A stretch of 64,000 nucleotides of DNA from Burkholderiales bacterium (GCA_022841915.1 JALHQN010000016.1:17859-81858), one strand, 5' to 3'. Shown: positions 7,237 to 64,000, counted from the stretch's first letter. Program-made: numbers and translations. Notes: a model not told the origin generated them from the sequence alone.

Positions 7237-8529
7237 TTACTCACTGATCGAGCGGGCGAGCCGGATCCCCGCAAATACATCGCTGCGATCGGGCGTATAG
7301 AAGTTGCGCCAGCGGTTATGCACCAGGCGCGAGCGCGTTGCGAACGATCCGCCGCGCAGGACGCGATGATCGCCGAACCAGGGCTGCGAGTACTCCTTGT
7401 AGGGTCCGGGCTGGAACCCCGGATAGGGAACAAACGGGCTCGAGGTCCATTCCCATACATTGCCCAACATCTGGCGCAGCCCGGTGCGGCTGTCGCCTCC
7501 CGGCAGGGCGGCACTGGGAACGGCGCCGTCCCATGCGCAGTCGAGGTTCGCCTGATCGGCCCGCGGCGAGATCGCCCCCCACGGATAGCGATCCGCGCCC
7601 GGATCCAGTTCGGCGCGCGCCGCGTACTCCCACTCCGCCTCGGTAGGCAGTCGAGCACCCGCGAATGCCGCGTAGGCGTCGGCCTCGTGCGCGCTCACGT
7701 GCATCATCGGTTCCGCATCGACCAGCGGCTCGATGCGGTCGAACCGCCGCAGCCGCCAGACCCCGCCATCCCGCTGCCAGTGACGCGGATGGTTCAAGCC
7801 GAGGCCTTGCCGCCATTGCCAGCCTTCGTCGGTCCACCAGCGCCGCTCGCCGTACCCGTTCGAATCGACGAAGCCACGGTACTGAAGTTGGGTGACGGTC
7901 GTGGTGGCCAATGCAAACGGCGCGATGTCGACCTCGTGCGCCTGCAACTCGTTATCGAAAACGAAGTCCGCACCCGGCATCGCCCCCATCGTGAAGCGAC
8001 CGCCGCCGAAACACACCTCGGACAGGCGGGGCGCCTCGACTGCGGCCATCTGCGACACCGATCGAGACGCCGGCCCCGGCAGCCCCAAGGTCTGCAGCGA
8101 CATGCGAAACGCCTCGGCATGCATGTCTTCATGATAGAGCGCGAGCATGGGAAAGTAGCTGTCCAGGACCGGCGCATGCTCGATGCGTCGAACCGTGGCC
8201 TCCAGCACGCGCTGCATGTAGTCGCGCACGATATCCCAGTCGAGCGCAGGCAGATCCCATCGCGCGGGATGAGCAATGAGCGCCGAGTTGAGCATGGGAT
8301 CGGCGTCGGTCAGCATCGACGCCTCGCGTAGCGCCCCGTCGCGCCAGCGCAGGCACCAGTGTTCCTGGAACCAGGCGACGTGGGCCAGTTCCCACAGCGG
8401 CGGATTCACCGTACGGCCGTATGGAAAGCGCATGGCCGCTTCATCCAGATGGGCATAGGCCGACAGCGTATAATCGCGGGCATCCTGCAACGCCTCGATC
8501 AACCGTTTACGATCGTTCAACGCTCTCAC
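7237..8529 (-). CDS. senA: EgtB-family sulfoxide/selenoxide synthase (DinB-like N-domain plus FGE-sulfatase C-domain); SenA-like by gene context
   Basis: The N-domain carries metal-ligand style motifs WELAHVAWFQEHW and LYHEDMHAEAF. The C-domain shows FGE-fold motifs LPTEAEWEYAAR, GNVWEWTSS, RVLRGGSF and GIRLAR. GTG start 8529 is preceded by a GGGGG SD; the listed 735-aa ORF extends upstream only as antisense of the neighbouring GT gene. The SenA versus EgtB assignment rests only on the adjacent SenB-like glycosyltransferase. Confidence 0.6.
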   Translation of the reverse strand: MRALNDRKRLIEALQDARDYTLSAYAHLDEAAMRFPYGRTVNPPLWELAHVAWFQEHWCLRWRDGALREASMLTDADPMLNSALIAHPARWDLPALDWDIVRDYMQRVLEATVRRIEHAPVLDSYFPMLALYHEDMHAEAFRMSLQTLGLPGPASRSVSQMAAVEAPRLSEVCFGGGRFTMGAMPGADFVFDNELQAHEVDIAPFALATTTVTQLQYRGFVDSNGYGERRWWTDEGWQWRQGLGLNHPRHWQRDGGVWRLRRFDRIEPLVDAEPMMHVSAHEADAYAAFAGARLPTEAEWEYAARAELDPGADRYPWGAISPRADQANLDCAWDGAVPSAALPGGDSRTGLRQMLGNVWEWTSSPFVPYPGFQPGPYKEYSQPWFGDHRVLRGGSFATRSRLVHNRWRNFYTPDRSDVFAGIRLARSISE

Positions 8530-9504
8530 TTGTCGCCCCCTGTCATCCTGATCGTCTCGCCGTACGCCGCGGCTGCCAACAACGGCAACACGCGCACGGC
8601 CGAGCGCTGGGCAAGACTGCTCAGCCCCGACTATCGCGCGATTGTACGCACGCCGCAGGATCCGCTCGGTGACGCCGATGTGCTCGTCGCATTGCACGCA
8701 CGCCGCAGCCACGCCGCGCTGCGCGCCTGGCGAGCGCGCGACCCGCAGCATCCGTGCATCCTGGTGCTCACAGGCACCGACTTGTATCGGGATATCCCCG
8801 AGCGCGACGCCAGCGCCCTCGAATCGCTGGCCCTCGCCGACGAACTGATCGTTCTGCAAGAGCGCGGCATCGAAGCCCTGCCTGCCGAACATCGCGGCAA
8901 GGCCACGGTGATCTACCAATCCGCCGCTGCCATGCCGTCTTGCGCAAAGTCGTCCCGGCGCCTGAACGCCTTGTTCGTGGGGCATCTGCGCGAGGAGAAG
9001 GATCCTCTTACTTTCATGCGCGCAGCCGCCGCCTTGTCCCCACGCAAAGACATCTCGTTCGCGCTCGCCGGCGGCCTGCGCGATGCCGCGATCGAGGCGA
9101 CCCTGGCGCCGCTGCGCGAGCAAGCACCCCAAGTGCGCCTGCTCGGCGCGCTGTCCCACGGCCGCACTCGGCAACGCATCCGGCGCGCCCATGTACTCGT
9201 CGTGCCCTCGCGCATGGAAGGCGGCGCCAATGTCATCGTCGAAGCCGTCATGTCCGGCACACCGGTGCTGGCGAGCGATTGCGACGGCAATGTCGGCATG
9301 CTGGGGGCCGGGTATCCGGGCTATTTCCCGGTAGGCGATGACGTCGCTCTTGCGCATCTGCTCGTCAGGTGCCGCGACGAACCGGCCTTCCTGCCGAGCT
9401 TGCAAACCCAATGTCGGGTGCGCGCACCGCTGTTCACCGCGCAAGCCGAACGGCAGGCTCTGGTCGCTGTGCTCGAACGCCGCCTCGCACCTCGGACCGG
9501 CTGA
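8530..9504 (+). CDS. senB: GT-B fold glycosyltransferase, SenB-like (selenosugar synthase-like); start uncertain (TTG 8530 or ATG 8449)
   Basis: The N-terminal strand-loop VILIVSPYAAAANNGNTRTAERWARLL and the C-terminal GT4-type motif PSRMEGGANVIVEAVMSGTPVLAS are present. It is paired head to head with the EgtB-family gene. From memory, this GT subfamily co-occurs with EgtB-like and SelD-like genes in the sen cluster. Confidence 0.55.
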   Translation: MSPPVILIVSPYAAAANNGNTRTAERWARLLSPDYRAIVRTPQDPLGDADVLVALHARRSHAALRAWRARDPQHPCILVLTGTDLYRDIPERDASALESLALADELIVLQERGIEALPAEHRGKATVIYQSAAAMPSCAKSSRRLNALFVGHLREEKDPLTFMRAAAALSPRKDISFALAGGLRDAAIEATLAPLREQAPQVRLLGALSHGRTRQRIRRAHVLVVPSRMEGGANVIVEAVMSGTPVLASDCDGNVGMLGAGYPGYFPVGDDVALAHLLVRCRDEPAFLPSLQTQCRVRAPLFTAQAERQALVAVLERRLAPRTG

Positions 9505-9513
9505 TCCACGAGT

Positions 9514-9942
9514 TCAATGTCGCGCGTTGCGCAGGATTTCCGCGCGGGCGTCCCTGACCTGCCTGGATGTCCAATGGCTGGCGATGAACGCGAGTACGGC
9601 GCGGATCTCCTCGTCGGTCAGCCGGTCGCCGAATCCCGGCATGTCGCTCTCGTAACCCGGCGGCGCATAGGGCGCCACCATGCCATGCTTGGTGATCGCG
9701 AACAGCAGTTCGTCCGCGTGGTGCCAGGTGTGCCCGCTTTCGTCATGAGGCGGCGCCGGCAGGCGACCGTTGGGCAAGCGCTCGCGCCAGTTCGGCTGCC
9801 CTTCCAGCTTGGCGCCATGACAAGCGGCACAGTGCTGCTCGTAGACGCGGGCGCCGGTGGCGATCTGCGCCGGGTCCGGCGTATCGGCGGTGCAGGCCGC
9901 GAGTACCCCGCAAAGTGCGATCAATAGCAAGCTTCGCGTCAT
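9514..9942 (-). CDS. Class I c-type cytochrome, probable lipoprotein
   Basis: ATG at 9942. The signal sequence carries a lipobox ([13 protein letters not shown]). The heme-binding motif is CAACH, with a distal Met region DMPGFG. The gene lies 7 nt downstream of the patatin gene stop. Confidence 0.8.
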
Positions 9943-9949
9943 GGACAAT

Positions 9950-10825
9950 CTATCCCGGAGTGCGCGCGAAGGCACGCGCCGTGCGCTCGCGGCCAAGCGC
10001 AATGAGTTCCTTGGCCCGCCAGAATTCGTGATATGCGCAAGCGTTGCGGGGCACCTCGATCGTGACGTCCGGAGAATAGGCCGCGAGCTTGAGACGAGCG
10101 ATCGTCGCCTGCATCGCCTCCATCGAGGCGAAGACGACCTCGCTCGTGCCCAGGGTAGGCGCAACCGGCGCCCCGCTGTTCGGAAACAGCCCCTCGATGA
10201 AGCGCCCGATGCGCCGTCGATAGTCGCTCCCCGCGTCTTCGGGTAGCACAGGCGGATCGACCAGCGCTTCGGCCCGCCCGTTGAGATCGACCGCGATGGT
10301 GAGATCCGTCGTATCGTTCAAAGTGGGCGCGATCGGAATCGGGTTGACCAAGGCGCCATCGAGCAGGCGGCGGCCGTTGTGCTGCGAGGGCGTGAACACC
10401 AGCGGCGTCGAAATCGAGGCCCGGATGGCGTCGAACAGCTTGCCTTCGCGCAACCAGACTTCCTTGCCGGTATCGAGATCGGTGGCGACGGCGGTATAGG
10501 CGATGGACAGATCCCGGATATCGCAGTCACCGATGAGATCGCGCAGCACGCCCATGATCCGATCACCCTTGATGAACCCGGTGCGGGCGAACGAGGGGTC
10601 GAGCAGGCGCAGGACATCCAAACGCTCGAGCGCGCTCACCCACTCGGTGTAGAGGTGCAGCTTGCCGGTCGCGTAGATGCCGCCGATGAGCGCGCCCATC
10701 GACGAGCCAGCAATGGAGCGCACAGCGTATCCATTCTCGCCGAGCCAATCGAGCACGCCGATATGCGCATAGCCCCGTGCGCCCCCGCTGCCGAGGACCA
10801 GCGACACCGTCGAGGGTCTGTCCAT
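9950..10825 (-). CDS. Patatin-like phospholipase (RssA-like)
   Basis: Oxyanion motif LGSGGARG, nucleophile elbow GSSMG and the catalytic Asp motif DGAL are present. The protein is 291 aa. Confidence 0.85.
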
Positions 10826-10969
10826 ACGCTTCCTGAAGAACGAAGAGCCGCCATGATACGCGCGCCCGCCCAGGTGCGAAGCCAGAGTGGCTGGGCCGGC
10901 GAGGGTGGCCGCCCCGGGGAAGACACCCGCCCGTTGCGACTTCTTCTTTGGGGAGCGGGGTTCAAGCTG

Positions 10970-11551
10970 CTACTGGCGCTCGGACCGATGCAGCGCGGGC
11001 GCGATCTCGGCGTCGCCCACACCCCGGGCGGTGTGTCGCAGGGCCTCCCGCCCGCTGTCGGCAGTGACCGCCAGCACGACGCGGATGTTTTCCCAACGGA
11101 CTTCCGGAGAACGCTCCGGGCGCACGCCGCCGGCTTTCTCCACCCCCACCCCGTGGCGGTACACGAGCTGCCCGCCAAGATAGGCCGTATAGTTCATCGC
11201 GACCACACCCGCGACCCCCGCCGCGAGATACCCCAGGCTGGGCGTCTGCGAGCGCGCTCGCATCAAGGCCAGGACGCCCGTCAAGGCGACCAGTCCGAGG
11301 TTCAGGTTTCGATGGGTCACCAAGGTCTCGTGGGCCTCTCGATCGACTTCGACCGCTCCCGGAGCGACCAACCCCGCCGTCGCCGCCACCGCGCCGCTGG
11401 CCGCAGCGATCGGCATCATCCGCGCACCCGCACGCATCCAACTTCGCTTGCCGGTGAGCCGGCCGATCAAGTCGAGCAACAGCGACGCCGGTATCAGGAC
11501 CAAAGGGAAATGGACGAGCGAAGGATGGATCTCATGAATGCGCAGGGTCAT
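10970..11551 (-). CDS. DUF2231-family integral membrane protein
   Basis: ATG 11551 follows a GGAGG SD. The N-terminal HPSLVHFPLVLIP motif and four predicted TM segments are present. Confidence 0.65.
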   Translation of the reverse strand: MTLRIHEIHPSLVHFPLVLIPASLLLDLIGRLTGKRSWMRAGARMMPIAAASGAVAATAGLVAPGAVEVDREAHETLVTHRNLNLGLVALTGVLALMRARSQTPSLGYLAAGVAGVVAMNYTAYLGGQLVYRHGVGVEKAGGVRPERSPEVRWENIRVVLAVTADSGREALRHTARGVGDAEIAPALHRSERQ

Positions 11552-11789
11552 GGCAGGCCTCCGGATCGAAGATGCGGAATCGCTCGCAAAACTCACACCC
11601 TCTTCGCTGCCGGGCTTTGCCTTCATCGCGTTTCCGGACCCGCGGCGCAGTGTCGGGCATGCGCGGCAAAGCCATCGGCACCGCGTTGCGGTGACCGATC
11701 CGGCGGCAGATATCGCCCGCGCGCAATGACAACGGAGCCCGAGTCGTAGACAATTGGCTTCTTGCCACGTGTGGATGGAGGGGAGCCAA

Positions 11790-12653
11790 ATGCGCTACGA
11801 GGCGCCAACGACAACAGAAGGGGCGGTCGCGCTGTTGGCGGCGGCCAACGGCACCGCGAAGGTACTTGCCGGCGGCACGGACCTGATCGTTCAGATGCGC
11901 AGCGGCCGGCTGGCACCGGATCTGGTCGTCGACCTGAAACGCATCCCGGCGCTGACCTCGATCGCGGCCGAGAACGGCGGTTACCGCGTCGGCGCCGCCA
12001 AAGCCTGCATGGAACTGGTGGAGCACGAAGCGTTCGTCAGGGACTGCCCCGGAATTACCGATGCAGTGAAGCTCATCGGCTCGATCCAGGTCAAAGGCCG
12101 CGCAAGCATGGGAGGCAATCTTTGCAACGCCTCGCCCGCCGCGGACAGCACGCCGGCACTGATCGCAGCTCGTGTCACCGCACGCGTCGTCGGCCCGAAC
12201 GGATCACGGGATGTGCCGGTGCAGGAAATCGCGATCGGCCCGGGCAAGACCTCGCTCGGCAAAGGGGAGATTCTCGAGTCCTTCCTGCTGCCCAAGCGCG
12301 CTGCGCGTTCCGGCGACGCCTACCTGCGGTTCACGCCGCGCACGGAGATGGACATCGCCGTCGTCAGCGCGGCGGTCAACCTGACGCTGGACGAGGGCGG
12401 CGTATGCCGCGACGCTTGCGTGAGCCTGGGCGCGGTCGCCGAGCGCGCGCTGGTGGTGCCCGAAGCCGCCGCCGCCTTGATCGGCACAAAAGTCGACGAG
12501 GTGGCCCTCAAGGCACTCGCGGCGGCGGCCAGCGCCGCATGCCGCCCGATCGACGACAAGCGCGGGACCAAAGCATATCGCACCAAGGTGGCCGGCGTGC
12601 TGGCGCGACGGGCCGCTGAAATCGCACTGAATCGGGCAAAGGGGACGAACTGA
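11790..12653 (+). CDS. Molybdenum hydroxylase FAD-binding (medium, CoxM-like) subunit
   Basis: ATG follows a GGAGGGGAG SD. The sequence VLAGGTDLIVQMR and the motif GGNLCNASPAADS are typical of xanthine dehydrogenase family FAD subunits. Confidence 0.85.
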   Translation: MRYEAPTTTEGAVALLAAANGTAKVLAGGTDLIVQMRSGRLAPDLVVDLKRIPALTSIAAENGGYRVGAAKACMELVEHEAFVRDCPGITDAVKLIGSIQVKGRASMGGNLCNASPAADSTPALIAARVTARVVGPNGSRDVPVQEIAIGPGKTSLGKGEILESFLLPKRAARSGDAYLRFTPRTEMDIAVVSAAVNLTLDEGGVCRDACVSLGAVAERALVVPEAAAALIGTKVDEVALKALAAAASAACRPIDDKRGTKAYRTKVAGVLARRAAEIALNRAKGTN

Positions 12654-13129
12654 TGGCCAAGCATCATGTGACGACGACGCTCAACGGCAGCCCCGTCGAG
12701 TATCTGTGCGAGCCGCATCACACGCTGCTCGATGTGTTGCGCGACGATCTGAACCTCACCGGCACCAAGGAAGGCTGCGGCTCGGGCGACTGCGGCGCCT
12801 GCAGCGTGATGCTGGACGGCCGCTTGGTCTGCGCCTGCCTCACCTTCGCCGCCGAATGCAACGGGCGCACCATCGAGACCATCGAAGGCATGGCGAACGG
12901 CACCAAGCTGCATCCCTTGCAGCAAAAGTTTCTGGAACACGCGGCGCTTCAATGCGGCATCTGCACGCCCGGCATGCTGATTTCGGCCAAGGCGCTGCTC
13001 GAGAAGAAGCCGGATCCGACAGAAGAAGAAGTGCGCTACTGGCTCGCGGGCAACCTTTGCCGCTGCACGGGCTACAACAAGATCGTGGAGGCGGTGCTCG
13101 ACGCCGCCGCCGAACTTCGGAGGGCATGA
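12653..13129 (+). CDS. Molybdenum hydroxylase (2Fe-2S) small (CoxS-like) subunit
   Basis: ATGA overlap with the upstream gene. The plant-type cluster GCGSGDCGACSV and the second cluster QCGICTPG...CRCTGY are present. Confidence 0.9.
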   Translation: MAKHHVTTTLNGSPVEYLCEPHHTLLDVLRDDLNLTGTKEGCGSGDCGACSVMLDGRLVCACLTFAAECNGRTIETIEGMANGTKLHPLQQKFLEHAALQCGICTPGMLISAKALLEKKPDPTEEEVRYWLAGNLCRCTGYNKIVEAVLDAAAELRRA

Positions 13130-13130
13130 C

Positions 13131-15407: not shown

Positions 15408-15451
15408 TTGCCACGGGGCGCTCGCGTCCCGTCACCGAGCAGCATCGCCCA

Positions 15452-15487
15452 CGCGGCGCCGTCCCCAGACGAGCGCCGCGTTTTTTC
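15452..15487 (+). terminator. Rho-independent terminator after the Mo-hydroxylase operon
   Basis: CGCGGCGC (15452-15459) pairs with GCGCCGCG (15473-15480) around a 13-nt loop. The stem is followed by TTTTTT (15481-15486). Confidence 0.7.
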
Positions 15488-15518
15488 TGGCCCAGGTCGA
15501 AGCGAGCGCTGCGAACGC

Positions 15519-15548
15519 TTGCTCGCCATACGTCCTGGGCCCTACAAT
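15519..15548 (+). promoter_or_regulatory. Sigma-70-like promoter and operator-like AT-rich inverted repeats upstream of the Xre/RES pair
   Basis: TTGCTC (15519-15524), an 18-nt spacer, then TACAAT (15543-15548). ACAAT (15545-15549) and ATTGT (15564-15568) are inverted repeats in an unusually AT-rich stretch just upstream of the antitoxin start. Confidence 0.4.
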
Positions 15549-15587
15549 TGCTACACCGTTTGTATTGTTTGATACGAGGAGTGCGGC

Positions 15588-15992: not shown

Positions 15993-16189
15993 CGCCCTGA
16001 GTCGGAAATTCGCTGAACAAAAGCGCCGGGAATCGACGCCATGCTTTGGCGGAAATCCTCGCCAAGCGTCCAACCTGGCTGCGTTTTCCTTCGCGTCCGA
16101 CGCCGATTTCGACCCTTTTGCCCCTTCCACACCGTCGGCACCGTTCGGCCATTCCTCAACGAATCTCTGACTCAGGACACTAGCGCGTC

Positions 16190-39296: not shown

Positions 39297-39369
39297 TGGA
39301 GGCGGGGGATGGATTTGAACCACCCTACGTGGCTTTGCAGGCCACGGCATAACACTCTGCCACCCCGCC
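39297..39369 (-). tRNA. tRNA-Cys (anticodon GCA)
   Basis: The minus strand reads GGCGGGGTGGCAGAGTGTTATGCCGTGGCCTGCAAAGCCACGTAGGGTGGTTCAAATCCATCCCCCGCCTCCA. It has a 7-bp acceptor stem GGCGGGG/CCCCGCC and an anticodon stem GTGGC/GCCAC with loop CTGCAAA. The T-loop TTCAAAT, discriminator U and encoded CCA are present. Length is 73 nt. Confidence 0.9.
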
Positions 39370-40116: not shown

Positions 40117-40593
40117 CTACTTGGCGAGCTGCCGCTCGCGAAACTGGATCATCTTGACCACATCCGCGGCATCCATCCGCCCGATCGGACCGTCGCTATA
40201 GCTCGATGCGAGCACCTTGCCGTCGCCACCGAGAACGAACTCGGCCGGTTGAACGATGCCGCGACGATCCTCCCACCAGGCGCCGATACGGTCTGCGATG
40301 TCGCGCGTGACGCCGTAACCGACGGGAAACGAAACCTCCGCGGCCACCTCGCGAGCCTTGTCCTCGGCATCAACGCTTGCCGCAAGGACTCGGACGTCCA
40401 GCGCATCCAAGGCTTGCTTGAGCTTCTCGAAGCCGACCAACTGTCGGCGGCAATACGCTCACCAGTGCCCGCGATAGAACAGAACGACACCATATTTGCC
40501 GCCGAGCTGCGACGGCACCCGAATACGCTGACCATCGACAATATCGATTTCCAGAGCCGGAAACGCTTCCCCGATACCGAGCTTGTCCGCCAT
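40117..40593 (-). CDS. Peroxiredoxin-like (AhpC/TSA/redoxin fold) protein with an in-frame UGA at the peroxidatic position; candidate selenoprotein (U-A-Y-C), alternatively a pseudogene
   Basis: ATG 40593 lies 6 nt after a GAGGAGG SD. The translation is MADKLGIGEAFPALEIDIVDGQRIRVPSQLGGKYGVVLFYRGHW-[TGA 40461-40459]-AYCRRQLVGFEKLK... and continues in frame to TAG at 40117. Cys homologues of this fold carry FYRGxWCPxC at the same place. Confidence 0.6.
40432..40448 (-). promoter_or_regulatory. Candidate bacterial SECIS hairpin for the peroxiredoxin-like gene
   Basis: The minus strand reads GCCGAC-AGUUG-GUCGGC, a perfect 6-bp stem that starts 11 nt after the UGA. The apical loop contains GU. 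Confidence 0.45.
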
Positions 40594-40661: not shown

Positions 40662-41360
40662 TCAGGAAACGATGCTCGCCGCGTGACGCCTGGAGAAAAG
40701 CTTCGCGACCGCCACGACCAGAATGGCACCGAGCGCACCGGCCACGTGCCAGTTCTGGAGCCAGCCCACATGCGCCTGCACCCAGGCACTCAAGACCGGG
40801 TCGCGAACGATCATGTCGCCCGCGATATACCCCAGCAGCGCCCCACCCAACGCGACGATCACCGGATAGCGCACCATGAGCTTGAGGATGAACTGACTGA
40901 ACCAGACAATGATCGGAATCGAGACGATGAGGCCGAACACGATCAGATAGATGTTGTCCTTGGCCGCGGCGGCAACGGCGATGATGTTGTCCAAACTCAT
41001 CACGAAGTCGGCGATGATGACCGTGCGCACCGCACCCAGGAGCGTCGTGCTGCCCGCGATCTTGCCAGGATCCTGTTCGCTCTCGTCCTGCATGATGAGC
41101 TTGCCGCCGATCCACAGCAACAAGAGGCCGCCGATCAACTTAAGGTACGGCACGGCGAGCAACACCACGGCGAATCCCGTGGCTGCCACTCTGAGGCCGA
41201 CAGCACCAGCCACCCCCCAAAGGACGCCTTTGCGGCGCTGCTCGGGCGGCAGGTCTCGGCAAGCGAGGGCAATCACGACCGCATTGTCACCGCCGAGTAA
41301 GATGTCGATGGCGATGATCTGCATCACTGCAAGCCAGAACGCGGGGTCGCCCAGGGTCAC
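40662..41360 (-). CDS. TerC-family (YjbE-like) integral membrane protein
   Basis: Two copies of the TerC signature are present (DILLGGDNAVVIALA and FVMSLDNIIAVAAAA), with about 7 TM segments. GTG start. Confidence 0.85.
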   Translation of the reverse strand: MTLGDPAFWLAVMQIIAIDILLGGDNAVVIALACRDLPPEQRRKGVLWGVAGAVGLRVAATGFAVVLLAVPYLKLIGGLLLLWIGGKLIMQDESEQDPGKIAGSTTLLGAVRTVIIADFVMSLDNIIAVAAAAKDNIYLIVFGLIVSIPIIVWFSQFILKLMVRYPVIVALGGALLGYIAGDMIVRDPVLSAWVQAHVGWLQNWHVAGALGAILVVAVAKLFSRRHAASIVS

Positions 41361-53618: not shown

Positions 53619-53634
53619 GGTCGTCCTCTCACGG

Positions 53635-55199: not shown

Positions 55200-55235
55200 T
55201 GCGCAAATTCCACGCTCGTCCTTCGCGCCGTGCCC

Positions 55236-56252: not shown

Positions 56253-56521
56253 GGCGGTCGCCCTCGTGTCGACAGAGAACCTGTCATTACAGCGTCTCGA
56301 AGCAAGGGACATACCACACGCGCTCCAGACGCATCGAGAGCGAACTAATCACCGCATCCCACTGCCGCGCACCCCGCCGTAGTGCATCAGCGCGGCCCGA
56401 TGCTCCAGGACCGTGCGGCTGTCGACCGCGCTCCGCTGGAGAAGCGCCGCCGCTTCCAATGGCATGGACCTTGCTAAAACTCGCGGGCCGATAACCTGTC
56501 ATGACAGCACGAGGATCGAGG

Positions 56522-57313
56522 ATGCTTGCAGTCGCTCACAATTCACCGCCGCTCTATGCCCGAGTGCGCGACAGCTTGCGCGCGGAGATCCACGCAGGCC
56601 GATATGTCGATGGCGGTCCGATGCCTTCGGAGGCTGTGCTGGGCCAGCGCTTCAACGTCAGTCGCATCACCGTGCGCCAGGCCCTGAGCGATCTGCAGAG
56701 CGAAGGCCTGATCTACAAGGTCAACGGCAAAGGCTCCTATGTCGACGCGCCGAAAGTGCAGCAAAGCCTGCAGCGGCTGGAGGGCTTCGGCGAAGCGATG
56801 TCTCGCCTCGGCTTCGAGAGCACCAACCGGGTAATTCGAAAGCGCACGGTCCCGGTACCTGCAGCCGTGGCGCCGCGGCTCGCGCTGCCCCCCGGCAAGC
56901 CTGTCACCGAACTGGTCTGGCTGCGGGCCCTGGATGGCGCGCCCTTCTGCTACGAGATCTCCTATCTGCCTCTCGACATCGGGGCCTTGCTGCCGGCAGC
57001 GAAGTTGGCAAATCGCGACATGTTCGCGATTCTCGAACAGGACCACGGCTTTCGCCTGGGCAATGCCGAGGTGAGCATCGGTGCGGTGCTGGCCAACCGC
57101 ACCCATGCTCGCCATCTTCGCACGCGCATCGATCAGCCCTGCCTTCGCATCGAGCGCCTCACCCGTTTGCAGAGCAATCGGCCGATCAACTTCGACTATC
57201 TGACTTTCCGGGGCGACGCATTCCAGTACCGTCTGACCATCGAACGCCAGTACGTCGGATTGAACGAGTCGACCCAGGCGAGTACCCCGAGAGTTGCGCG
57301 CCGCGCAGCTTAG
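56522..57313 (+). CDS. GntR-family (HutC/UTRA subfamily) transcriptional regulator
   Basis: The winged HTH reads LPSEAVLGQRFNVSRITVRQALSDLQSEGLIYKVNGKGSYV, followed by a UTRA-like C-domain. It is divergent from the ABC operon. ATG 56501 is an alternative start. Confidence 0.85.
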   Translation: MLAVAHNSPPLYARVRDSLRAEIHAGRYVDGGPMPSEAVLGQRFNVSRITVRQALSDLQSEGLIYKVNGKGSYVDAPKVQQSLQRLEGFGEAMSRLGFESTNRVIRKRTVPVPAAVAPRLALPPGKPVTELVWLRALDGAPFCYEISYLPLDIGALLPAAKLANRDMFAILEQDHGFRLGNAEVSIGAVLANRTHARHLRTRIDQPCLRIERLTRLQSNRPINFDYLTFRGDAFQYRLTIERQYVGLNESTQASTPRVARRAA

Positions 57314-57341
57314 CGTATCGACTCACCACCAGGAGATGGTC

Positions 57342-58334
57342 ATGAATGCAGGATCAGTACTTCTCAAGCAGGTATCGCTGTGCGCCCTTGCGGCGCTAGG
57401 CTTGCTCTTCGCAGCGAGTGCGCTCGCGCAACAACCAGCGACGGTTCGACTGGCGCAGAACCTGTCTCCGATCTCCGGAGTAGCCATCGTCGCCAAGCAG
57501 CGCGGTTTCTTCGACAAGCACGGCCTGGAGGTCGCCGTGAGCAATTTCACCACGGGGCGTCAGGCGCTCGAAGCAGTCATGGCCGGCGGCGCCGACATCT
57601 CGACCGTCGCCGAGGCCCCCATTACGGCCGGCGCGATGGCCAAGCAGCGCATGGCGCTGCTGGCGCGAATCAACTTTTCCGATGTGAAGACGCTCACCGA
57701 CACTTCGGATCGGATCGCCAAGGCGTCCGATCTGAAAGGAAAGCGCATCGGCTATGCAGCGGGAACCGGCAGCGAGGTCTATACGATGACGCTGCTCAAG
57801 CAAGGCGGCCTGACGCCTGCAGACGTGACCCTGGTCAATCTGCGTCCGCAAGACATGGTGTCGGCGATCGTCAAGGGCAGCATCGATGCCATGAACATCT
57901 GGGAGCCGCACATCTCCAATGCCCGCAAGCTCCTCGGCGAGAAGGCCCGCGAACTCGACACCAAGGGCGTCTACGCGGAGACGTTCAACATCGTCACCAC
58001 GCAGGACTACCTCAGCAAGAACCCGGCGCCGGTCCAAAGGTTCCTGCGCGCGCTGATCGATGCCCATCAATGGATCCGAGCCAATCCCGACCAGGCCATC
58101 ACGGTGATCGCCGAAACCGTCGGCATGAAGCGAGACGACTTCGCGCCGCTGTGGGGCGACTACAACTACGATGTCGTGCTCGATGAGCAGGTCTTCGCCG
58201 TGCTGCGCACGCACGCTCAGTGGCGCCTCGACACGAAGAACGCCCCGTCCGGCGCCACCATGCCGGATTTCCGCAGCGTGGTCTTCCCCGAGCCGCTGCG
58301 GTCCATCGCACCGGACCGGGTTCGCATCAAGTAG
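57342..58334 (+). CDS. ABC transporter substrate-binding protein (NMT1-like), second system
   Basis: ATG lies 6 nt after an AGGAG SD. The signal peptide ends in ALA-QQ and the body is NMT1/SsuA-like. Confidence 0.8.
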   Translation: MNAGSVLLKQVSLCALAALGLLFAASALAQQPATVRLAQNLSPISGVAIVAKQRGFFDKHGLEVAVSNFTTGRQALEAVMAGGADISTVAEAPITAGAMAKQRMALLARINFSDVKTLTDTSDRIAKASDLKGKRIGYAAGTGSEVYTMTLLKQGGLTPADVTLVNLRPQDMVSAIVKGSIDAMNIWEPHISNARKLLGEKARELDTKGVYAETFNIVTTQDYLSKNPAPVQRFLRALIDAHQWIRANPDQAITVIAETVGMKRDDFAPLWGDYNYDVVLDEQVFAVLRTHAQWRLDTKNAPSGATMPDFRSVVFPEPLRSIAPDRVRIK

Positions 58335-58350
58335 TCACGGGAACCCGGGC

Positions 58351-59118
58351 GTGATCGGATTCGAGCAGAACCCGCGTGCCGTTCTCGTAGCGCGCCTCGC
58401 ATCGGTGCCGGTCTTCCTGCTCGCCTGGGAACTCATCGTCCGCTCCGGCATCGTCAATGCCGCCCTGTTCCCGCCGCCGTCGGCGGTCGCACTCGCACTC
58501 GTGGCGTACGCGTCAGACGGCCCTTTGTTGCTCGATTTGGCCTGGAGCGTATCCCGCGTCGCCGTCGGATTCTTCAGCGGCGTCGCGGCCGGCATTCTGC
58601 TCGGCATCCTGACCGGAACCTTTCCCGTGGTCTCCGGCGCACTGGCCCCCATCTTCCAGATGCTGCGCCCGATACCCCCGATCGCCTTCGTGCCGATCGT
58701 GATCGTCTGGTTCGGGCTGACCGAGCTGGGCAAATGGTTCCTCGTCTTCTGGGGCGTGTTTTTTACCGTTTGGATGTCCGCCCATCTCGGTGTTCAGCGC
58801 GTCGGCGAAACCCTGCTACGCGCAGCCCTTTCGCTCGGCACGAGTCAGCGCAACCTGCTGCTGGCGGTCGTTCTCCCTGCCTCGCTACCGGTGATCTTCG
58901 TCGGCGTGCGCACAGCGGTGGGCATCTCTTTCTACACGCTGGTGGCCGCCGAACTGGCCGGCGCATCCTTCGGCATCGCCTATCGACTGGAGGTCTCGCA
59001 GCAGAACATGCAGGTGGCCCAGATGATGGCAGGGCTCGTGATGCTCGGACTGATCTCGTTCACCGCCGATCAACTCTTCGGGAAGTTGTCCCGACGCATC
59101 GTTCACTGGAAGGAATGA
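58351..59118 (+). CDS. ABC transporter permease (NitT/TauT family), second system
   Basis: GTG start. The TM-rich protein carries the EAA loop AALSLGTSQRNLLLAVVLP. No cognate ATPase gene follows. Confidence 0.8.
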   Translation: MIGFEQNPRAVLVARLASVPVFLLAWELIVRSGIVNAALFPPPSAVALALVAYASDGPLLLDLAWSVSRVAVGFFSGVAAGILLGILTGTFPVVSGALAPIFQMLRPIPPIAFVPIVIVWFGLTELGKWFLVFWGVFFTVWMSAHLGVQRVGETLLRAALSLGTSQRNLLLAVVLPASLPVIFVGVRTAVGISFYTLVAAELAGASFGIAYRLEVSQQNMQVAQMMAGLVMLGLISFTADQLFGKLSRRIVHWKE

Positions 59119-59251
59119 CCATTCAGAGCGCAGCCCTTGCTGATCGCGCATTCGCAGCGCGTTTGCTTACTCGGTTCAGCCACCTCTCGCCCCAGCAGTG
59201 CGTTGACGCCGCACGCGTCCCCATCAATGCCGACAGTGCCCGGATCGATCG

Positions 59252-60661
59252 ATGCTCAGCCTAGACATCACCACGCTGCACGCCGGTTATCGCAACGGCA
59301 CCCTCACGCCGACGCAGGTCATCGAGGAAGTCTATCGCCGCATCGAGGCACGAGGCGACGACCACGTCTGGCTGAGCCTCGTGCCCCAGCGCATCGCAGT
59401 CGAGCGGGCGCAAGCACTCGAGGCCCGCATTCCCCCGCGATCCGGCCCCGACAGTCACCCGCTCTACGGGCTGCCCTTCTCCGTGAAGGACAACCTCCAT
59501 GTCGCCGGCATGACCACGAGCGCCGCCTGTCCGGCGTTCTCGCACGTGGCGAAGGTCACAGCGACCGCAGTCGATCGGGCACTCGATTCGGGCGCGATCC
59601 TGATCGGCAAGACCAACATGGATCAATTCGCCACGGGCCTGGTCGGGATACGGTGTCCGACCGGATATTGCCGCAATCTGTTCGATCCCGACTACATCCC
59701 CGGTGGCTCCAGTTCGGGCGCGGGCGTTTGCGTCGGCGCAGGCTTGGTGAGCTTCGCATACGGATCCGACACCGGCGGCTCGGGTCGTGTTCCGGCGGCA
59801 ATGAGCAACGTCGTCGGATTCAAGCCGACCCCCGGCGTGATCAGTGTCGCCGGCTTCGTCTACGCCAATCGCAGCATCGACGTCTGCCCGATCTTCGCAC
59901 TGACCGTCGACGATGCGTATCGGGTGTTCGAAGTCGTCCGGGGCTTCGATCCTGGCGACGATTTTTCACGCCCCGAAGCCGGCGACTATGACGTGTCGGC
60001 GCGCGACTTCGCCGCATTCAAGTTCGGCGTCCCCTCGGCCGAGCACCTGAATTTCTTCGGCGACGTCGCGCAGGCAGCCGCGTACCGGGCATCGATCGAG
60101 CGCCTTGCCGCGATGGGCGGCACGCCGGTGGAGATCGACTTCGCCCCGTTCACCGAGCTCGGCCGCATGCTGTTCAGCAGCCCTGCGCTGGCGGAGCGGC
60201 TCGTCGACCTGGAAGCCTTCCTGGAACATCATCTGGAGGACTTGCATCCGACCACGCGGACGGTTCTTTCGAGCGCTCGCCACTTCACGGCCACGGACGC
60301 CTATCGCGAGCAGTATCGAATGCAGCGCCTGAAGCGCGCCGTTCATGCACAGATGGCCCAATGCGACTTGCTCGCGCTTCCGACCACAGGGACGATCTAT
60401 CGCATCGCCGAAGTCGAAGCGGATCCGGTCCGTCTCAATGCGAACAACGGCTACTACACGTACTTCGCCAACCTTGCCCACTTGTGCGCCATCTCGGTCC
60501 CGGCGAGTTTCCGCCCCGACGGCCTGCCGTTTTCTATTTGCCTGGTAGCACCGCCACTCCAGGAAGGCGCGTTGCGCGGCATCGCTCGGCGCTTTCATGC
60601 TTCGAGCGGATTGCCTGCCGGAGCAACCGGCGCCGCCGTGGCCCCCATGTACGACCGGTAA
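59252..60661 (+). CDS. Amidase-signature enzyme (allophanate hydrolase-like N-domain)
   Basis: The amidase signature stretch GGSSSGAGVCVGAGLVSFAYGSDTGGSGRVPAA contains the Ser-cisSer-Lys triad context. The protein is 469 aa. Confidence 0.85.
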   Translation: MLSLDITTLHAGYRNGTLTPTQVIEEVYRRIEARGDDHVWLSLVPQRIAVERAQALEARIPPRSGPDSHPLYGLPFSVKDNLHVAGMTTSAACPAFSHVAKVTATAVDRALDSGAILIGKTNMDQFATGLVGIRCPTGYCRNLFDPDYIPGGSSSGAGVCVGAGLVSFAYGSDTGGSGRVPAAMSNVVGFKPTPGVISVAGFVYANRSIDVCPIFALTVDDAYRVFEVVRGFDPGDDFSRPEAGDYDVSARDFAAFKFGVPSAEHLNFFGDVAQAAAYRASIERLAAMGGTPVEIDFAPFTELGRMLFSSPALAERLVDLEAFLEHHLEDLHPTTRTVLSSARHFTATDAYREQYRMQRLKRAVHAQMAQCDLLALPTTGTIYRIAEVEADPVRLNANNGYYTYFANLAHLCAISVPASFRPDGLPFSICLVAPPLQEGALRGIARRFHASSGLPAGATGAAVAPMYDR

Positions 60662-61069
60662 TCCCCGACGCTTGCAGCGCCAACGAGCGCAGAGGATCGG
60701 CCGCAGTCGCGAAGGCGACATACAAAAGCCCTGAGACGCCCTGGAACGCCAGGTGCGACACTTGGCCGCAGCTCGTCGGCGCCCCCGGTCGCTTCGCATT
60801 GAGCATCGGCGCCGGCCTGGCCGGCACGCTGCTGCTGGTTGCATGTGCACCCTGAAGCGACGCGCCGATGCACGGGACCGAGCGTGAGAACGGGCTCTGA
60901 GCCCTCTCGACTGGGCACGGATGATCACGCAAGAACAATACTTGCAGACGGCGCCGGTCATCGCCCCCGAGCAGCGCGCCGAGCGAATCCTGCATCCGTG
61001 AAGCGCAAAGCCTCTGCGATGGGTCTGCGGTCCGTCGAGAAGTCCGCGACGGCCTGCGAACGACCGGCC

Positions 61070-62317
61070 CTAGCGCGCGAAACGCTCGGCCCGGTAAGGC
61101 GTCGGATCCACGAAGGGTTGCTCGCCCGTGGCCATCTCGGCGATCAGCCGCCCGGTCACCGCGCCCAACGTGAACCCTTGATGGGCATGGCCGAACGCGA
61201 ACCACATATTGGGGTGGCGCGGCGCCTGACCGATGACAGGCAGCATGTCCGGGGTGCAGGGCCGGGCGCCCATCCAGGGTTCGGCATCCACGCGCTCGGC
61301 CAGCGGAAACAGTTCTCGCGCGGCGGGCTCGGCACGCTCGAGTTGAACGGGTGTCGGTGCGGCGTCACGCAAGGCGAACTCCACCCCGGTGGTGAGGCGC
61401 ATGCCGCGAGCCATGGGCGTCAGGCAATAGCCTCGTTCGCTGTCGGCGATCGGGCGGTTGAGCACGGCCTCGCCCTGCGCGCGATAGTGCATGTGATAGC
61501 CGCGCTTGACGGCCAGCGGCAGATCGTAGCCGAGAGCCCGAGTCACCCCGTCGGACCAGGGGCCGAGCGCGATGACGACCTTGCCGGCATCGATCGGCCC
61601 ATGGGCGCCATCGACCCGCCAACCGCTGCCGTTCTCTGTCAGCGTATTCGCATCGCCTTGCACGAACTGACCGCCGAGCGACCCGAAGCGCCGCAAGTAC
61701 GCCAACGCGAGCGCCTGCGGATCGCCAACGGTGGTCGGCTGGGTCCAATGCAGGCCGCCGACGAGCACGGACGACAAGTGAGGTTCGGCTTCCTGAAGCC
61801 CGCGCGCATCGAGCGCCCGAAAGGCGACCCCGAAGGCGCGCTGCGCACGCTCGGCATCCGCGAAGCCCGCATCGCGCTTCTCGGCGGTGCGATAGACGCG
61901 GATCCAGCCATCGCGTCGCAGCAACCCCGTCGCCCCCGACTCCTGCGCCAGCGCATCGTGCTCGGCGACGCAGTGCTCGATCAGGCGCGCATAGCTGCGG
62001 GTGACGTCCCCGTAGCGCTTGGGGTGGGAATTGCGCCAATAGCCCCACATGAAGGAGGCGATGCGGGGCAACGCCGCGAGATGATAGCTGGCGTCGATGG
62101 AACGATTGCGAGCGTAGCGCATGATCACCCCGAACTCCTGCGGGAAGACATGCGGATTCACGGCCTCGCGCTGAATCATGCCCGCATTGCCGAACGAGGT
62201 CTCTTCAGCCGCCCCGCGCTTATCCACCAGCACCACGGCGTAACCGCGCTTCTGCAGATGCAGTGCGACGCACACGCCCACCATGCCGGCACCCAGAACC
62301 GTGAAGTCTGCTTTCAT
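61070..62317 (-). CDS. FAD-dependent oxidoreductase (DadA-like D-amino-acid dehydrogenase family)
   Basis: The N-terminal dinucleotide fold VLGAGMVGVCVALHLQKRGYAVVLVDK is present. The protein is 415 aa and DAO-family-like throughout. Confidence 0.85.
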   Translation of the reverse strand: MKADFTVLGAGMVGVCVALHLQKRGYAVVLVDKRGAAEETSFGNAGMIQREAVNPHVFPQEFGVIMRYARNRSIDASYHLAALPRIASFMWGYWRNSHPKRYGDVTRSYARLIEHCVAEHDALAQESGATGLLRRDGWIRVYRTAEKRDAGFADAERAQRAFGVAFRALDARGLQEAEPHLSSVLVGGLHWTQPTTVGDPQALALAYLRRFGSLGGQFVQGDANTLTENGSGWRVDGAHGPIDAGKVVIALGPWSDGVTRALGYDLPLAVKRGYHMHYRAQGEAVLNRPIADSERGYCLTPMARGMRLTTGVEFALRDAAPTPVQLERAEPAARELFPLAERVDAEPWMGARPCTPDMLPVIGQAPRHPNMWFAFGHAHQGFTLGAVTGRLIAEMATGEQPFVDPTPYRAERFAR

Positions 62318-62843
62318 GATCGCTTTTTTTCAGTTTTCACTTCTGTGACGACCATCGCCCGTCGTCTCCGAACCAGTCGCTTGCGTGCGCGATCGCGGGC
62401 GCTCGAACCCTGAACACCACGCACCCGCCGGGCTGTGGAGACTCAACGGACAGCCAGCCGGACGCATCGTGTTCCTAGAATAGCAGGCAAAGAACGACTG
62501 TCGGCATTCGAGCGCCATCGTCGCACCGCGCCGCGCTGCCAGCTGAAGCAAGACCGAGACCATCCCGCATGCGCGCCGGATGCATCGGACAACCCTGCCT
62601 CGCTCCCGGACCATGGCCTCTCGCGCCCCGACTCGACTTCGGAATGCGCCAACGTAGGATGACCGCCCACGACCCGAGGCGGTAGACTCTTCTTGCTGCG
62701 GTCGGTTTCGAGTTTTCCGTCCACGAACTCGCTGAGCCGCTGCCCGCGAGTCGACACGCGCTTCAGGTCGACCACGCTATCCGGGCGAAGACGGCAATCG
62801 CAGCGAAGGTTCGGTCACAGGACATCGATCATCCGGAGGCAGC

Positions 62844-64000
62844 ATGACTACCTATCGAGTCGTCTATCCGCTCGGGCGCAAAGCGCGCCGGAGCACCAGC
62901 AGCAAGCCACGTCCCCGGACACTGGACGGCATGACGATCGCGGAGCTCTCCAATCACAAGTTCGATTCCGAGTTCACCTTCCGCTCGATCGAGCAGGCCA
63001 TCCTGAAACGCCATCCCGGTGTCAAGTTCGTGCCGTTCGAAACGTTCGGCGACACCTACGGCCCGCGCGAATCGGAGGTCATCCGCGACTTGCCCGAAAA
63101 GCTCAGGCTGCACGAAGTGGACTTGGTGATATCAGGCAACGCAGGTTGAGGGAGCTGCACCGCCGCGAGTTCGCGTGCAAGCATTGCAGCTGAAATGGCC
63201 GGGCTGCCGACTGTGACGGTCGCCATCGGAGAAGGATTCGCCAAATCGGTCAAGGCGATCGGCAGGCAATCTGGGGTCGATCTCAAGGTCGCCGTCTACC
63301 CGGGTGTCATCTCGACGCACGAACGCCCCACGGTCGCGAAGAACATCGACGAAGTGCTCGCGGATCAGCTCGTGGCGCAGCTGACAGCCCAGAGCGAATC
63401 GTCGGAGTTCGCGCCCTTCGAAGGCGAACCCGGCGAGCGGGACATCGTCTTCACCGGCAGCTTCGAAGCCGTCAACGAGCACTTCCAGAGGCAAGGATGG
63501 AGCGATGGGCTGCCCATCGTCCCGCCGACAATCGAGAAGGTAGAAGCCTTCTTGCGTTACACCGACCGCACGCCCGAGCAGGTGCTGGGCATCATGCATC
63601 CGAGTCTCGCCGCCGCGAGCGTATGGAACGTCGCCGTGACCGGCGTCATGGCCGGATGCCGGCCCGAGTACATGCCGGTGCTGCTCGCGATTGCCGACGT
63701 CATGGCCGACCCCGACTACGGCCTCAAGCATGGAGGAAGCACCCCCGGCTGGGAGGCGATGATCATCGTCAACGGACCGATCCGGGAGCAGCTCGGTCTC
63801 GACTACGGGCAGGGCCTGCAGCGTCCGGGGAACCAGGCGAACACGAGCATCGGACGCTTCTATCGCCTCTTCGCCCGCAATATTCCCCGCTTTCTGCCCG
63901 GCTCCACCGACATGGCCACCTTCGGCCAGATGTTCCGTGCCGTCGTCGCGGAGGACGAAGCTGCTTGTCGCGCCATGGGTTGGGCCCCGCTGCACGTGAC
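62844..64000 (+). CDS. Candidate selenoprotein with a U-G-S-C motif (in-frame TGA 63147-63149); the 3' end runs beyond the window
   Basis: ATG lies 5 nt after a GGAGG SD. The 101 codons end ...VDLVISGNAG, then TGA-GGG-AGC-TGC (U-G-S-C). The same frame stays open for the remaining 851 nt with coding-like codon usage (...TAASSRASIAAEMAGLPTVTVAIGEGF...GLPIVPPTIEKVEAF...MAGCRPEYMPVLL...). If read conventionally, this is a 101-aa ORF plus a second ORF from ATG 63195. Confidence 0.65.
63154..63190 (+). promoter_or_regulatory. Candidate bacterial SECIS element for the UGSC gene
   Basis: The outer stem is GCUGCA (63154-63159) / UGCAGC (63185-63190). The inner stem is GCCGCG (63162-63167) / CGCG-U-GC (63172-63178, with U63176 bulged). 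The apical loop AGUU (63168-63171) lies about 20 nt after the UGA. Confidence 0.5.

Follow-up and report, generated by a model that had tools for sequence, protein, structure and literature searches.

Three selenium-linked loci in a 64-kb window of an uncultured Burkholderiales genome: a senA/senB pair and two predicted selenoprotein genes with canonical SECIS hairpins

The window analysed here, a 64,000-nt stretch of the Burkholderiales bacterium assembly GCA_022841915.1 (contig C16, JALHQN010000016.1:17859-81858), contains three loci with a putative link to selenium, namely a senA/senB pair and two genes in which an in-frame TGA is followed by a candidate SECIS hairpin. This raises the questions of whether the two TGA codons are read as selenocysteine (Sec), whether the AGUU loop shared by the two hairpins is a special signature, and whether the closeness of the three loci has a meaning. 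The source genome is an uncultured, metagenome-type assembly with 96% completeness and 1.3% contamination. The three loci had been placed by a sequence-only reading, and all were recovered at their positions, with the family scores for SenA, SenB, AhpC-TSA, and UGSC above the curated cut-offs. The features are listed below.

7237..8529, minus strand: senA, selenoneine synthase (EgtB homologue), by NF041186; presumed GTG start at 8529
8530..9504, plus strand: senB, selenosugar synthase (Se-glycosyltransferase), by TIGR04348; start uncertain
40117..40593, minus strand: predicted Prx-like (AhpC/TSA fold) selenoprotein gene, 158 codons, W-U-A-Y-C motif, by Pfam AhpC-TSA
40459..40461, minus strand: predicted Sec codon UGA of the Prx-like gene, codon 45; column invariant in the orthologue alignment
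40432..40448, minus strand: predicted SECIS hairpin GCCGAC-AGUUG-GUCGGC of the Prx-like gene, by fold and covariation
62844..64000, plus strand: predicted fused UGSC/'Unknown_1' selenoprotein gene, first 385 of 566 codons, by Pfam UGSC PF24696
63147..63149, plus strand: predicted Sec codon UGA in the U-G-S-C motif, codon 102; column invariant in the orthologue alignment
63162..63178, plus strand: predicted SECIS hairpin GCCGCG-AGUU-CGCG(U)GC of the UGSC gene, by fold and conservation

The translation of 7237-8487 on the minus strand scored 451.2 bits against the SenA model NF041186 (cut-off, 420), whereas its score against the EgtB model TIGR03440 was 317.7 bits, which is below the cut-off of 360. 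Orthologues of senA with 65-69% identity were found in four of the five same-genus genomes. The plus-strand ORF 8359-9504 scored 381.5 bits against the SenB model TIGR04348 (cut-off, 300), with residues 63-373 matched; the candidate start of senB is an in-frame TTG at 8530, and the HMM match starts at 8545. The two genes are divergent, their likeliest starts (GTG at 8529 on the minus strand and TTG at 8530 on the plus strand) abut, and their neighbours encode a sensor kinase and a cytochrome c.

The biochemistry of SenA, SenB, and SenC has been published (Kayrouz et al., bioRxiv 10.1101/2022.04.13.486033), as have structures (PMC11237966, PMC10891094). Like the sen cluster (senA-senB-senC) of Variovorax paradoxus, the window encodes a SenA and a SenB that both exceed the equivalog cut-offs. 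However, senC is neither adjacent to the pair nor present as a separate gene in the genome, and the divergent arrangement with abutting starts differs from the co-directional sen cassette. No selD homologue is co-located with senA and senB; the sole selD-class match above the cut-off lies at C28:17953-18882, not on C16, and is a Sec-containing selD beside selU. As in most sen organisms, EgtD, from which hercynine would be supplied, is encoded elsewhere in the genome (C1:465675-466574; TIGR03438, 392.6 bits with a cut-off of 290.9). Such a layout is not rare, since only 827 three-gene cassettes stand against 2,353 TIGR04348 genes (bioRxiv 10.1101/2022.04.13.486033).

The Prx-like ORF has exactly one in-frame TGA (context FYRGHW-U-AYC), and the Pfam AhpC-TSA domain (PF00578) runs over residues 7-128, across this TGA, with 70.8 bits (cut-off, 26). 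Its product had been called a peroxiredoxin, a label that we rejected. The peroxidatic PxxxTxxC motif of true peroxiredoxins is absent, a W-U-x-x-C redox motif stands in its place without a Thr at position -3 (FYRGHW-U), and the best peroxiredoxin model of NCBIfam gave 29.6 bits versus 211. Given this motif, Prx-like 1 or thiol-disulfide oxidoreductase would be a more fitting name for the product. It resembles the 'Prx-like 1' selenoproteins (pfam00578, UxxC; Zhang and Gladyshev, PMC2398784) in the AhpC/TSA fold, in the PF00578 score above the cut-off, and in the U-x-x-C motif (HW-U-AY-C) with Sec at the first redox position. The window copy has U-A-Y-C, compared with U-P-x-C in 44 of the 45 orthologues.

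The hairpin of this gene folds alone with a dG of -9.4; its loop (40442-40438) begins 16 nt past the UGA and has the G at nt 21, counted from the U of UGA. The TGA and the AGUU are kept in all 45 orthologues, which come from alpha-, beta-, and gammaproteobacterial MAGs, and CAGUU is invariant across the alignment. In the stem, 99.6% of the cells are paired and 11 double-sided changes occur, a result matched by none of 500 shuffles; the pair 18-26, for instance, varies among GC, GU, UA, and AU as compensatory changes.

The UGSC gene has a full length of 566 codons and ends at C16:82402, 544 nt past the end of the window. Its ORF has one in-frame TGA (context ISGNAG-U-GSC), and Pfam UGSC PF24696 covers residues 6-181, across the TGA, with 82.6 bits (cut-off, 25), placing U-G-S-C at the Sec position of the family. 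In the motif and in the domain match across the UGA, it is like the known UGSC family (PF24696, NF041046; PMC2398784). Against the NCBIfam equivalog NF041046, a model of the short UGSC form of about 147 residues, it reached 40.8 bits, below the cut-off of 125; the window copy is a divergent long form. A 'UGSC/Unknown_1 fusion' was already described in 2008 in the GOS selenoproteome, and in the window gene, too, UGSC is fused to an unnamed C-terminal domain of this kind; the UGSC family in that data set is mostly Sec-containing (255 Sec versus 21 Cys) and commoner in non-marine samples (PMC2398784).

The 'Unknown_1' partner domain gave no Pfam or NCBIfam match. An AlphaFold2 model of the 566-residue protein had a pLDDT of 75.8, and a Foldseek search of the PDB matched the N-terminal UGSC module only, to generic flavodoxin or Rossmann-like folds (TM < 0.2 on the query), and found no relative of the C-terminal domain. 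As modelled, the UGSC module would adopt a flavodoxin-like alpha/beta fold in which a helix starts at Sec; this fold differs from the thioredoxin-like one suggested in 2008 (PMC2398784).

The loop of the UGSC hairpin (63168-63171) begins 18 nt past the UGA and presents G23 and U24. An outer helix may extend over 63153-63191; when it is included, the dG is -16.3 to -17.5. The TGA and the AGUU are kept in 20 of 20 UGSC-long orthologues. Neither the core of five base pairs nor the loop varies among the 21 sequences, so that no covariation signal arises and conservation of the RNA is confounded with that of the peptide A-A-S-S-R-A. Nevertheless, the rare Ser codon AGT is fixed at the hairpin in all 21 sequences, and codon choice would be the only feature that separates RNA-level from protein-level constraint here. 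Rare codons are fixed in the SECIS loops, AGT making up 6.3% of Ser codons and TTG/TTA 14.7% of Leu codons.

Within the 64-kb window, profile searches found no selA, selB, selC, selD, selU, or second selD, as the sequence-only reading had noted; the Sec and selenouridine machinery is encoded on contigs C1 and C28. Profile searches of the contigs recovered selA (573.8 bits), a single selB (434.2 bits), and tRNA-Sec (75 bits; confirmed as tRNA-SeC with the anticodon tca). The selD gene at C28:17953-18882 (424.4 bits) itself has one in-frame TGA, in GGG-U-GCK, and adjoins selU (355 bits). The Sec-decoding set of selA, selB, tRNA-Sec, and selD is therefore complete, every member being over its cut-off. 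TGA ends 62% of the long coding ORFs in the genome and is thus an ordinary stop codon, which argues that the code is not globally reassigned. Among the markers of the Se-cofactor trait, YqeB scored 208.5 bits, just below the cut-off of 220, and YqeC was not found in the genome. The genome content supports a combination of Sec decoding, selenouridine (selU), and selenoneine (senA, senB, and egtD), in line with the broad selenium-utilisation trait that had been proposed for the lineage.

Alternatively, the in-frame TGAs could be true stops, dividing two genes or marking a pseudogene, or assembly errors, and the hairpins could be chance or terminator-like structures. Sec-blind gene calling indeed splits both genes (40117-40440; 62931-63149 and 63195 onward). 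However, single Pfam domains span both TGAs, the coding signal carries on in frame past them, all 65 orthologues, taken from independent assemblies, have the TGA at the homologous Cys/Sec position, and the full Sec machinery is present in the genome. This explanation is thus extremely improbable. A lack of the machinery, or a loss of the AGUU loops in orthologues with sense codons in place of TGA, had been named in advance as refuting the sequence-only reading; the machinery is present, and TGA and AGUU persist in 45/45 and 20/20 orthologues. Both window TGAs are very probably Sec codons, read via SECIS hairpins that one SelB could recognise.

To place the two hairpins among the SECIS elements of the genome, in-frame TGAs were scanned and filtered by hairpin, which gives a lower bound on the selenoprotein count; the first threshold of coding score, 0.45, was too strict and was relaxed. 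At least 26 predicted selenoprotein genes were found, comprising 19 UGSC paralogues, FdhA, SelD, PrdB-like, AhpD-like, and OsmC-like genes, a rhodanese candidate, and the Prx-like gene of the window. The DedA-rhodanese gene at C1:354094 (YCS-U-PDE) is only a probable selenoprotein candidate. On reading, the hits at C3:262962 (atpE/atpF in the same frame) and C4:195841 (a 35-codon ORF) proved to be false positives, and many low-scoring hits were discarded. The earlier remark that neither window gene is the usual formate dehydrogenase holds for the window; the genome, however, does encode a Sec-containing FdhA at C15:77159.

In each of the 26 genes, the apical loop of the hairpin contains GU, the G being at nt 21-29. 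As had been read from the sequence, both window hairpins have an AGUU loop on unrelated stems; the loops begin 16 nt (Prx-like) and 18 nt (UGSC) past the UGA, compared with the earlier figure of about 17-22 nt. In the E. coli fdhF SECIS loop, G and U stand at nt 23 and 24. The window UGSC gene has G and U at the same positions and is in this respect like the G23-U24 loop of fdhF/fdnG. The published bSECIS model requires the apical loop N-G-[G/U]-N-N (PMC13188914), 16-37 nt from the UGA to this loop, and an MFE of -7.5 kcal/mol or lower. AGUUG of the Prx-like gene and AGUU of the UGSC gene fit the pattern, both spacings counted on the sequence fall within the range, and the energies of the Prx-like hairpin alone and of the UGSC hairpin with its outer helix are below the limit. 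Compared with the bacterial consensus (bSECISearch model, PMC13188914), nothing essential is different; the stems lie within coding sequence and are therefore particular to each gene. Rfam at the gathering threshold reported one tRNA only and no SECIS family in the whole window. The proposal that one SelB may recognise both hairpins stands.

AGUU, or A-G-U, could also be a lineage-specific SelB signature that is narrower than the bacterial SECIS rule, with genes lacking it decoded less well. A-G-U does occur in 17 of the 26 loops, including those of all 13 UGSC genes with the short-type hairpin and of the OsmC-like gene (AGUU), and the Prx-like family retains AGUU in three classes of proteobacteria. 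Nevertheless, the 13 short-type copies, in which the closing pair flips between C-G (6) and G-C (7), are paralogues and so not independent, and conservation in distant classes is contrary to a lineage-specific rule. Furthermore, other loops in the genome, such as GGUCU (FdhA), GUU (SelD), GUG (PrdB-like), and GUC (AhpD-like), lack the A or lack a U after the GU, as do those of five long UGSC genes (CGUGUU, CGUGCA, and GGU), and the pattern is already covered by the published consensus (PMC13188914). Such a signature is therefore unlikely. Because all 26 loops have GU, AGUU is an instance of the bacterial SECIS consensus rather than a signature of its own.

The density of selenium loci in the window had also been taken as meaningful, and the loci could form a functional 'selenium island' or regulon, their co-location within 57 kb resulting from co-regulation or joint transfer. 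For one pre-fixed 64-kb window, three such loci have a P of about 0.003. However, when 27 selenium loci were placed at random in 6.2 Mb, 42% of the trials contained one or more 64-kb spans that held three loci or more, and contig C11 holds another three-locus span (56333, 75783, and 80297). Gaps of 30 and 22 kb, which hold unrelated genes, separate the window loci. Moreover, in the same-genus genomes the three loci are on different contigs or absent: SenA and the UGSC-long orthologue lie on C136 and C22, respectively, in genome G001, and none of the five genomes has the Prx-like gene. The island idea is thus largely refuted and very unlikely; the closeness of the three loci is due to chance and is not a conserved cluster.

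The reading that we prefer, with a probability of roughly 0.9, is that the genome uses selenium in three ways, that the window holds three unlinked pieces of this use, that both UGAs are recoded via canonical SECIS elements, and that one SelD likely supplies all three pathways. SenB would join selenophosphate to a UDP-sugar to form a selenosugar, and SenA would move the selenium onto hercynine from EgtD to form selenoneine. The Prx-like thioredoxin-fold protein would have selenocysteine in its U-x-x-C redox motif, and the two-domain protein would combine the N-terminal UGSC module with the unnamed 'Unknown_1' domain, which has about 380 residues. In both mRNAs, UGA would be recoded by the single SelB with Sec-tRNA(UCA), SelB docking on the hairpin 16-18 nt downstream, where the apical loop presents G-U; the shared AGUU would be this canonical G-U with common neighbours. 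As no senC is present in the genome, the Sec-containing SelD beside selU is the most likely source of selenophosphate for all three pathways; that it serves SenB we infer solely because the genome has no second selD-class gene.

All families in the window and the SECIS type are already known, and the window itself thus adds little to biology; the genus-wide expansion of UGSC is the notable residue. UGSC copies number 19 here and 14-26 per genome in the genus, compared with 33 UGSC genes in 26 organisms in a 2016 survey, which placed selenoprotein-rich bacteria mainly among anaerobes (PMC5029168). All 19 paralogues have the TGA, and only three of them exceed the NF041046 cut-off of 125. The partner domain of ~380 residues that accompanies the UGSC Sec module is either fused to it or the product of an adjacent gene. 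Around UGSC copies, genes for Bug/TctC solute receptors, enoyl-CoA hydratases, TauD dioxygenases, TPP enzymes, and acyl-CoA synthetases form catabolic islands.

We give about even odds to the view that this apparently aerobic, uncultured Burkholderiales genus has expanded a two-part UGSC selenoenzyme to 14-26 copies per genome, almost all keeping Sec, and that the copies in catabolic islands are enzymes that depend on selenium, act on a variety of organic acids, and draw on one Sec-containing SelD. If so, the lineage would be selenoprotein-rich outside the anaerobic clades in which such organisms are known, it would point to an uncharacterised Se-dependent enzyme family for varied organic acids, and all UGSC copies would depend on one SelD that also serves selenouridine and selenoneine.

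For annotation, Sec-blind callers would split or truncate both window selenoprotein genes and about two dozen more in the genome. Through the window, we reached a genome that combines three selenium traits and encodes 26 or more predicted selenoproteins, with 19 UGSC modules as the dominant group. This makes the lineage well suited to learning the function of the UGSC/partner enzyme and to asking how a single SelD and a single SelB serve many clients.

The window corresponds to positions 17859-81858 of contig C16 in the source assembly G000 (6.21 Mb, 63.8% G+C, 66 contigs, 96% complete, 1.3% contamination). When ORFs were listed with TGA translated as U and the sequence was read alongside, the three selenium loci proposed by the sequence-only reading were all present where it had placed them. 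TGA ends 62% of the long, well-scoring ORFs in the genome and is therefore an ordinary stop codon rather than a reassigned one. The window features were as follows.

7237-8487 (translated), minus strand: senA; NCBIfam SenA, 451.2 bits (cut-off 420)
8359-9504 (ORF), plus strand: senB; TIGR04348, 381.5 bits (cut-off 300)
39297-39369, minus strand: tRNA-Cys (GCA), the sole tRNA gene of the window, separated from the upstream Prx-like gene by about 750 nt that include a TetR regulator
40117-40593, minus strand: Prx-like selenoprotein gene, 158 codons; single TGA at 40461-40459, reading FYRGHW-U-AYC
40448-40432, minus strand: Prx-like SECIS hairpin GCCGAC-AGUUG-GUCGGC; dG -9.4; loop starting 16 nt past the UGA
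40662-41360, minus strand: YjbE/TerC-family membrane protein; TIGR03717, 233.8 bits; adjoins the Prx-like gene on its upstream side
from 62844, plus strand: UGSC-long selenoprotein gene; single TGA at 63147-63149, reading ISGNAG-U-GSC
63162-63178, plus strand: UGSC-long SECIS hairpin GCCGCG-AGUU-CGCG(U)GC; G and U at nt 23 and 24; loop starting 18 nt past the UGA

The NCBIfam EgtB model fell below its own cut-off on the senA translation. Since in-frame candidate starts lie at the sequence junction (GTG 8529 for senA, TTG 8530 for senB, whose start is uncertain), the two genes are divergent with abutting candidate starts. At 8527-8532 these starts stand head to head with zero spacer, and alternative starts exist; any promoters or ribosome-binding sites would thus lie inside the partner's coding sequence. 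EgtD, for hercynine supply, is encoded at C1:465675. A genome-wide profile search returned a single selD-class gene above cut-off, on C28, and a separate senC is therefore absent. A senA-senB pair that lacks a neighbouring selD, as in G000, is common, given published counts of 2,353 senB genes versus 827 three-gene cassettes (Kayrouz et al., bioRxiv 10.1101/2022.04.13.486033). A close SenA orthologue was found in four of five same-genus genomes.

The machinery for Sec decoding was found complete in selA, selB, tRNA-Sec and selD, all on other contigs than that of the window.

C1:633191-634555: selA, 573.8 bits
C1, immediately after selA: selB, 434.2 bits
C1:637593-637683: tRNA-Sec, 75 bits; tRNA-SeC with anticodon tca by ARAGORN
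C28:17953-18882: selD, 424.4 bits (SelD locus L100, C28:17896-18882; TGA at C28:17983)
adjoining selD, opposite strand: selU, 355.1 bits

The one in-frame TGA of selD lies in SHGGG-U-GCK and is followed by its own hairpin, so SelD is itself a selenoprotein. As the only selD-class gene product of the genome, it probably supplies the Sec, selenouridine and selenoneine pathways alike. For the Se-cofactor trait, a YqeB-like gene (C4:150131-150892, minus strand) scored 208.5 bits against a cut-off of 220, and YqeC was not found in the genome.

The Pfam AhpC-TSA match of the Prx-like protein (residues 7-128) spans the TGA. The protein combines a thioredoxin-type fold with a W-U-x-x-C motif, lacks the peroxidatic PxxxTxxC motif, and is most likely a selenol/thiol oxidoreductase; it matches the class called 'Prx-like 1' in the ocean selenoproteome papers (PMC2398784). 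In all 45 usable orthologues, which come from MAGs of alpha-, beta- and gammaproteobacteria, the homologous codon is TGA and AGUU comes after it. In their alignment, 99.6% of stem cells were paired, against at most 51% in slid controls; pair 18-26 occurs as GC, GU, UA and AU, double-sided changes occur at pair 15-29 too, and none of 500 shuffles matched the observed covariation. The gene is flanked by the TetR regulator and the YjbE/TerC gene. The NCBIfam model name for the latter protein starts 'R_switched', which we take to denote riboswitch-regulated members; no Rfam riboswitch was found at this gene at the gathering threshold. Since the Prx-like gene was found in none of the five same-genus genomes, it may be a recent acquisition; G+C around the tRNA-Cys/Prx-like region is unremarkable.

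The UGSC-long ORF comprises 566 codons on the contig and ends 544 nt beyond the window, with Pfam UGSC (PF24696) covering residues 6-181. TGA at the homologous codon, then AGUU, was likewise kept in 20 of 20 orthologues, so that in neither gene has the loop been lost or the TGA given way to a sense codon. The core helix is invariant in the UGSC-long alignment and thus gives no covariation evidence. The loop Ser codon of UGSC-long is always AGT (6.3% of genome Ser codons), and the loop Leu codon of the Prx-like gene always TTG or TTA (together 14.7% of Leu codons); such fixed rare codons point to selection on the RNA rather than on the peptide alone. In an AlphaFold2 model (pLDDT 75.8) the Sec domain has a flavodoxin-like alpha/beta fold, in which Sec102 follows a beta-strand and begins a helix. 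Foldseek returned only generic flavodoxin or Rossmann matches for the Sec domain and none for the C-terminal part, whose invariant residues include W219-x-D-G-L-P and Cys272. A D-amino-acid-dehydrogenase-like FAD oxidase (61070-62317, minus strand) adjoins UGSC-long, its transcription pointing the other way; past it (57402-60661, plus strand) lie apparent ABC-transporter permease genes and a 469-codon ORF. The short UGSC copy at C11:75783 has a paralogous FAD oxidase (C11:69296-70555) at a distance of about 5 kb.

A genome-wide scan required each in-frame TGA to be flanked by coding signal on either side and followed by a hairpin; the survivors were named by Pfam and NCBIfam. At least 26 selenoprotein genes were predicted, made up of 19 UGSC copies, the Prx-like gene, SelD and the five genes of other families listed below. 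Each of the 26 carries a hairpin whose apical loop contains GU, the G at nt 21-29. The loop reads A-G-U in 17; the others have GGUCU, CGUGUU, CGUGCA, GUC, GUG, GUU or GGU. Thirteen UGSC genes share the short-type hairpin GUCGUG(G/C)-AGUNU-(C/G)CACGAC, its closing pair being C-G in 6 and G-C in 7 despite the resulting amino-acid changes. The bacterial SECIS model allows loops of 3-9 nt with N-G-[G/U]-N-N, spacing of 16-37 nt and MFE <= -7.5 (PMC13188914). Both window hairpins fit it, so AGUU amounts to the canonical G-U that SelB binds, in an ordinary context. The shared loop had been taken as expected of one SelB; the loops are consistent with one SelB reading all selenoprotein genes, but AGUU is not a distinct signature.

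The density of loci had also been read as a broad selenium trait. The 27 selenium loci in 6.2 Mb amount to 0.28 per 64 kb, giving P ~0.003 for three in a pre-chosen 64-kb window; under random placement across the genome, 42% of trials yield one or more such spans. A second span of three (C11:56333, 75783 and 80297; 24 kb) holds two UGSC genes, one long and one short, and an OsmC-related gene, the last also with an AGUU loop. The genes between the window's loci are unrelated (transporters, regulators, CoA metabolism), and the UGSC-long orthologue, present in three of five same-genus genomes, is never on SenA's contig. The broad selenium trait is real; neither the density nor the AGUU 'signature' is meaningful in itself. 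The observation was confirmed and its interpretation partly supported.

Selenoprotein genes of other families in the genome included the following.

C15:77159: FdhA, IENQARI-U-HSS
C3:350052: PrdB/GrdB-like, 438 codons, LSPV-U-PNC
C3:351088: AhpD/YciW-like, about 200 codons, GCHY-U-MAHN
C11:80297: OsmC-related, GR-U-P
C1:354094, minus strand: DedA(VTT)-rhodanese fusion, probable selenoprotein, TGA in IIVYCS-U-PDEASAA

The PrdB-like and AhpD/YciW-like genes are in tandem (locus L101, C3:349460-351500), each with a GU-loop hairpin. The TGA of the DedA-rhodanese gene stands where homologues presumably have Cys, and the gene may be an extra selenoprotein or a broken gene.

Every family concerned is known: SenA and SenB from the work of Kayrouz et al.; Prx-like 1; and, since 2008, UGSC-containing proteins as well as the 'UGSC/Unknown_1 fusion' (PMC2398784). 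The bSECIS model is known likewise. The window loci are thus additional members of described families. UGSC itself occurs in 19 copies, each with a single in-frame TGA (e.g. C1:112972-113409, C11:75582-76010, C8:94334-94765); 8 are fused to the partner domain of about 380 residues, and 11 are short, each beside a stand-alone gene for that domain. Commonly encoded around them are Bug/TctC receptors, enoyl-CoA hydratases, TauD dioxygenases, SDRs, TPP enzymes, MmgE/PrpD and acyl-CoA synthetases. The Sec region is locally similar to PrdB/GrdB-type proteins (VISGNAG-U-GSC vs VLSPV-U-PNC), which hints that UGSC may have a reductase-like role. A 2016 survey counted 33 UGSC genes in 26 organisms and found selenoprotein-rich bacteria mainly in anaerobic clades (PMC5029168). 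The five same-genus genomes have 14-26 copies each, almost all with TGA; of 25 further families of the order that were sampled, 24 gave no UGSC gene. The stand-out feature is the UGSC copy number, a genus-level expansion that merits follow-up.
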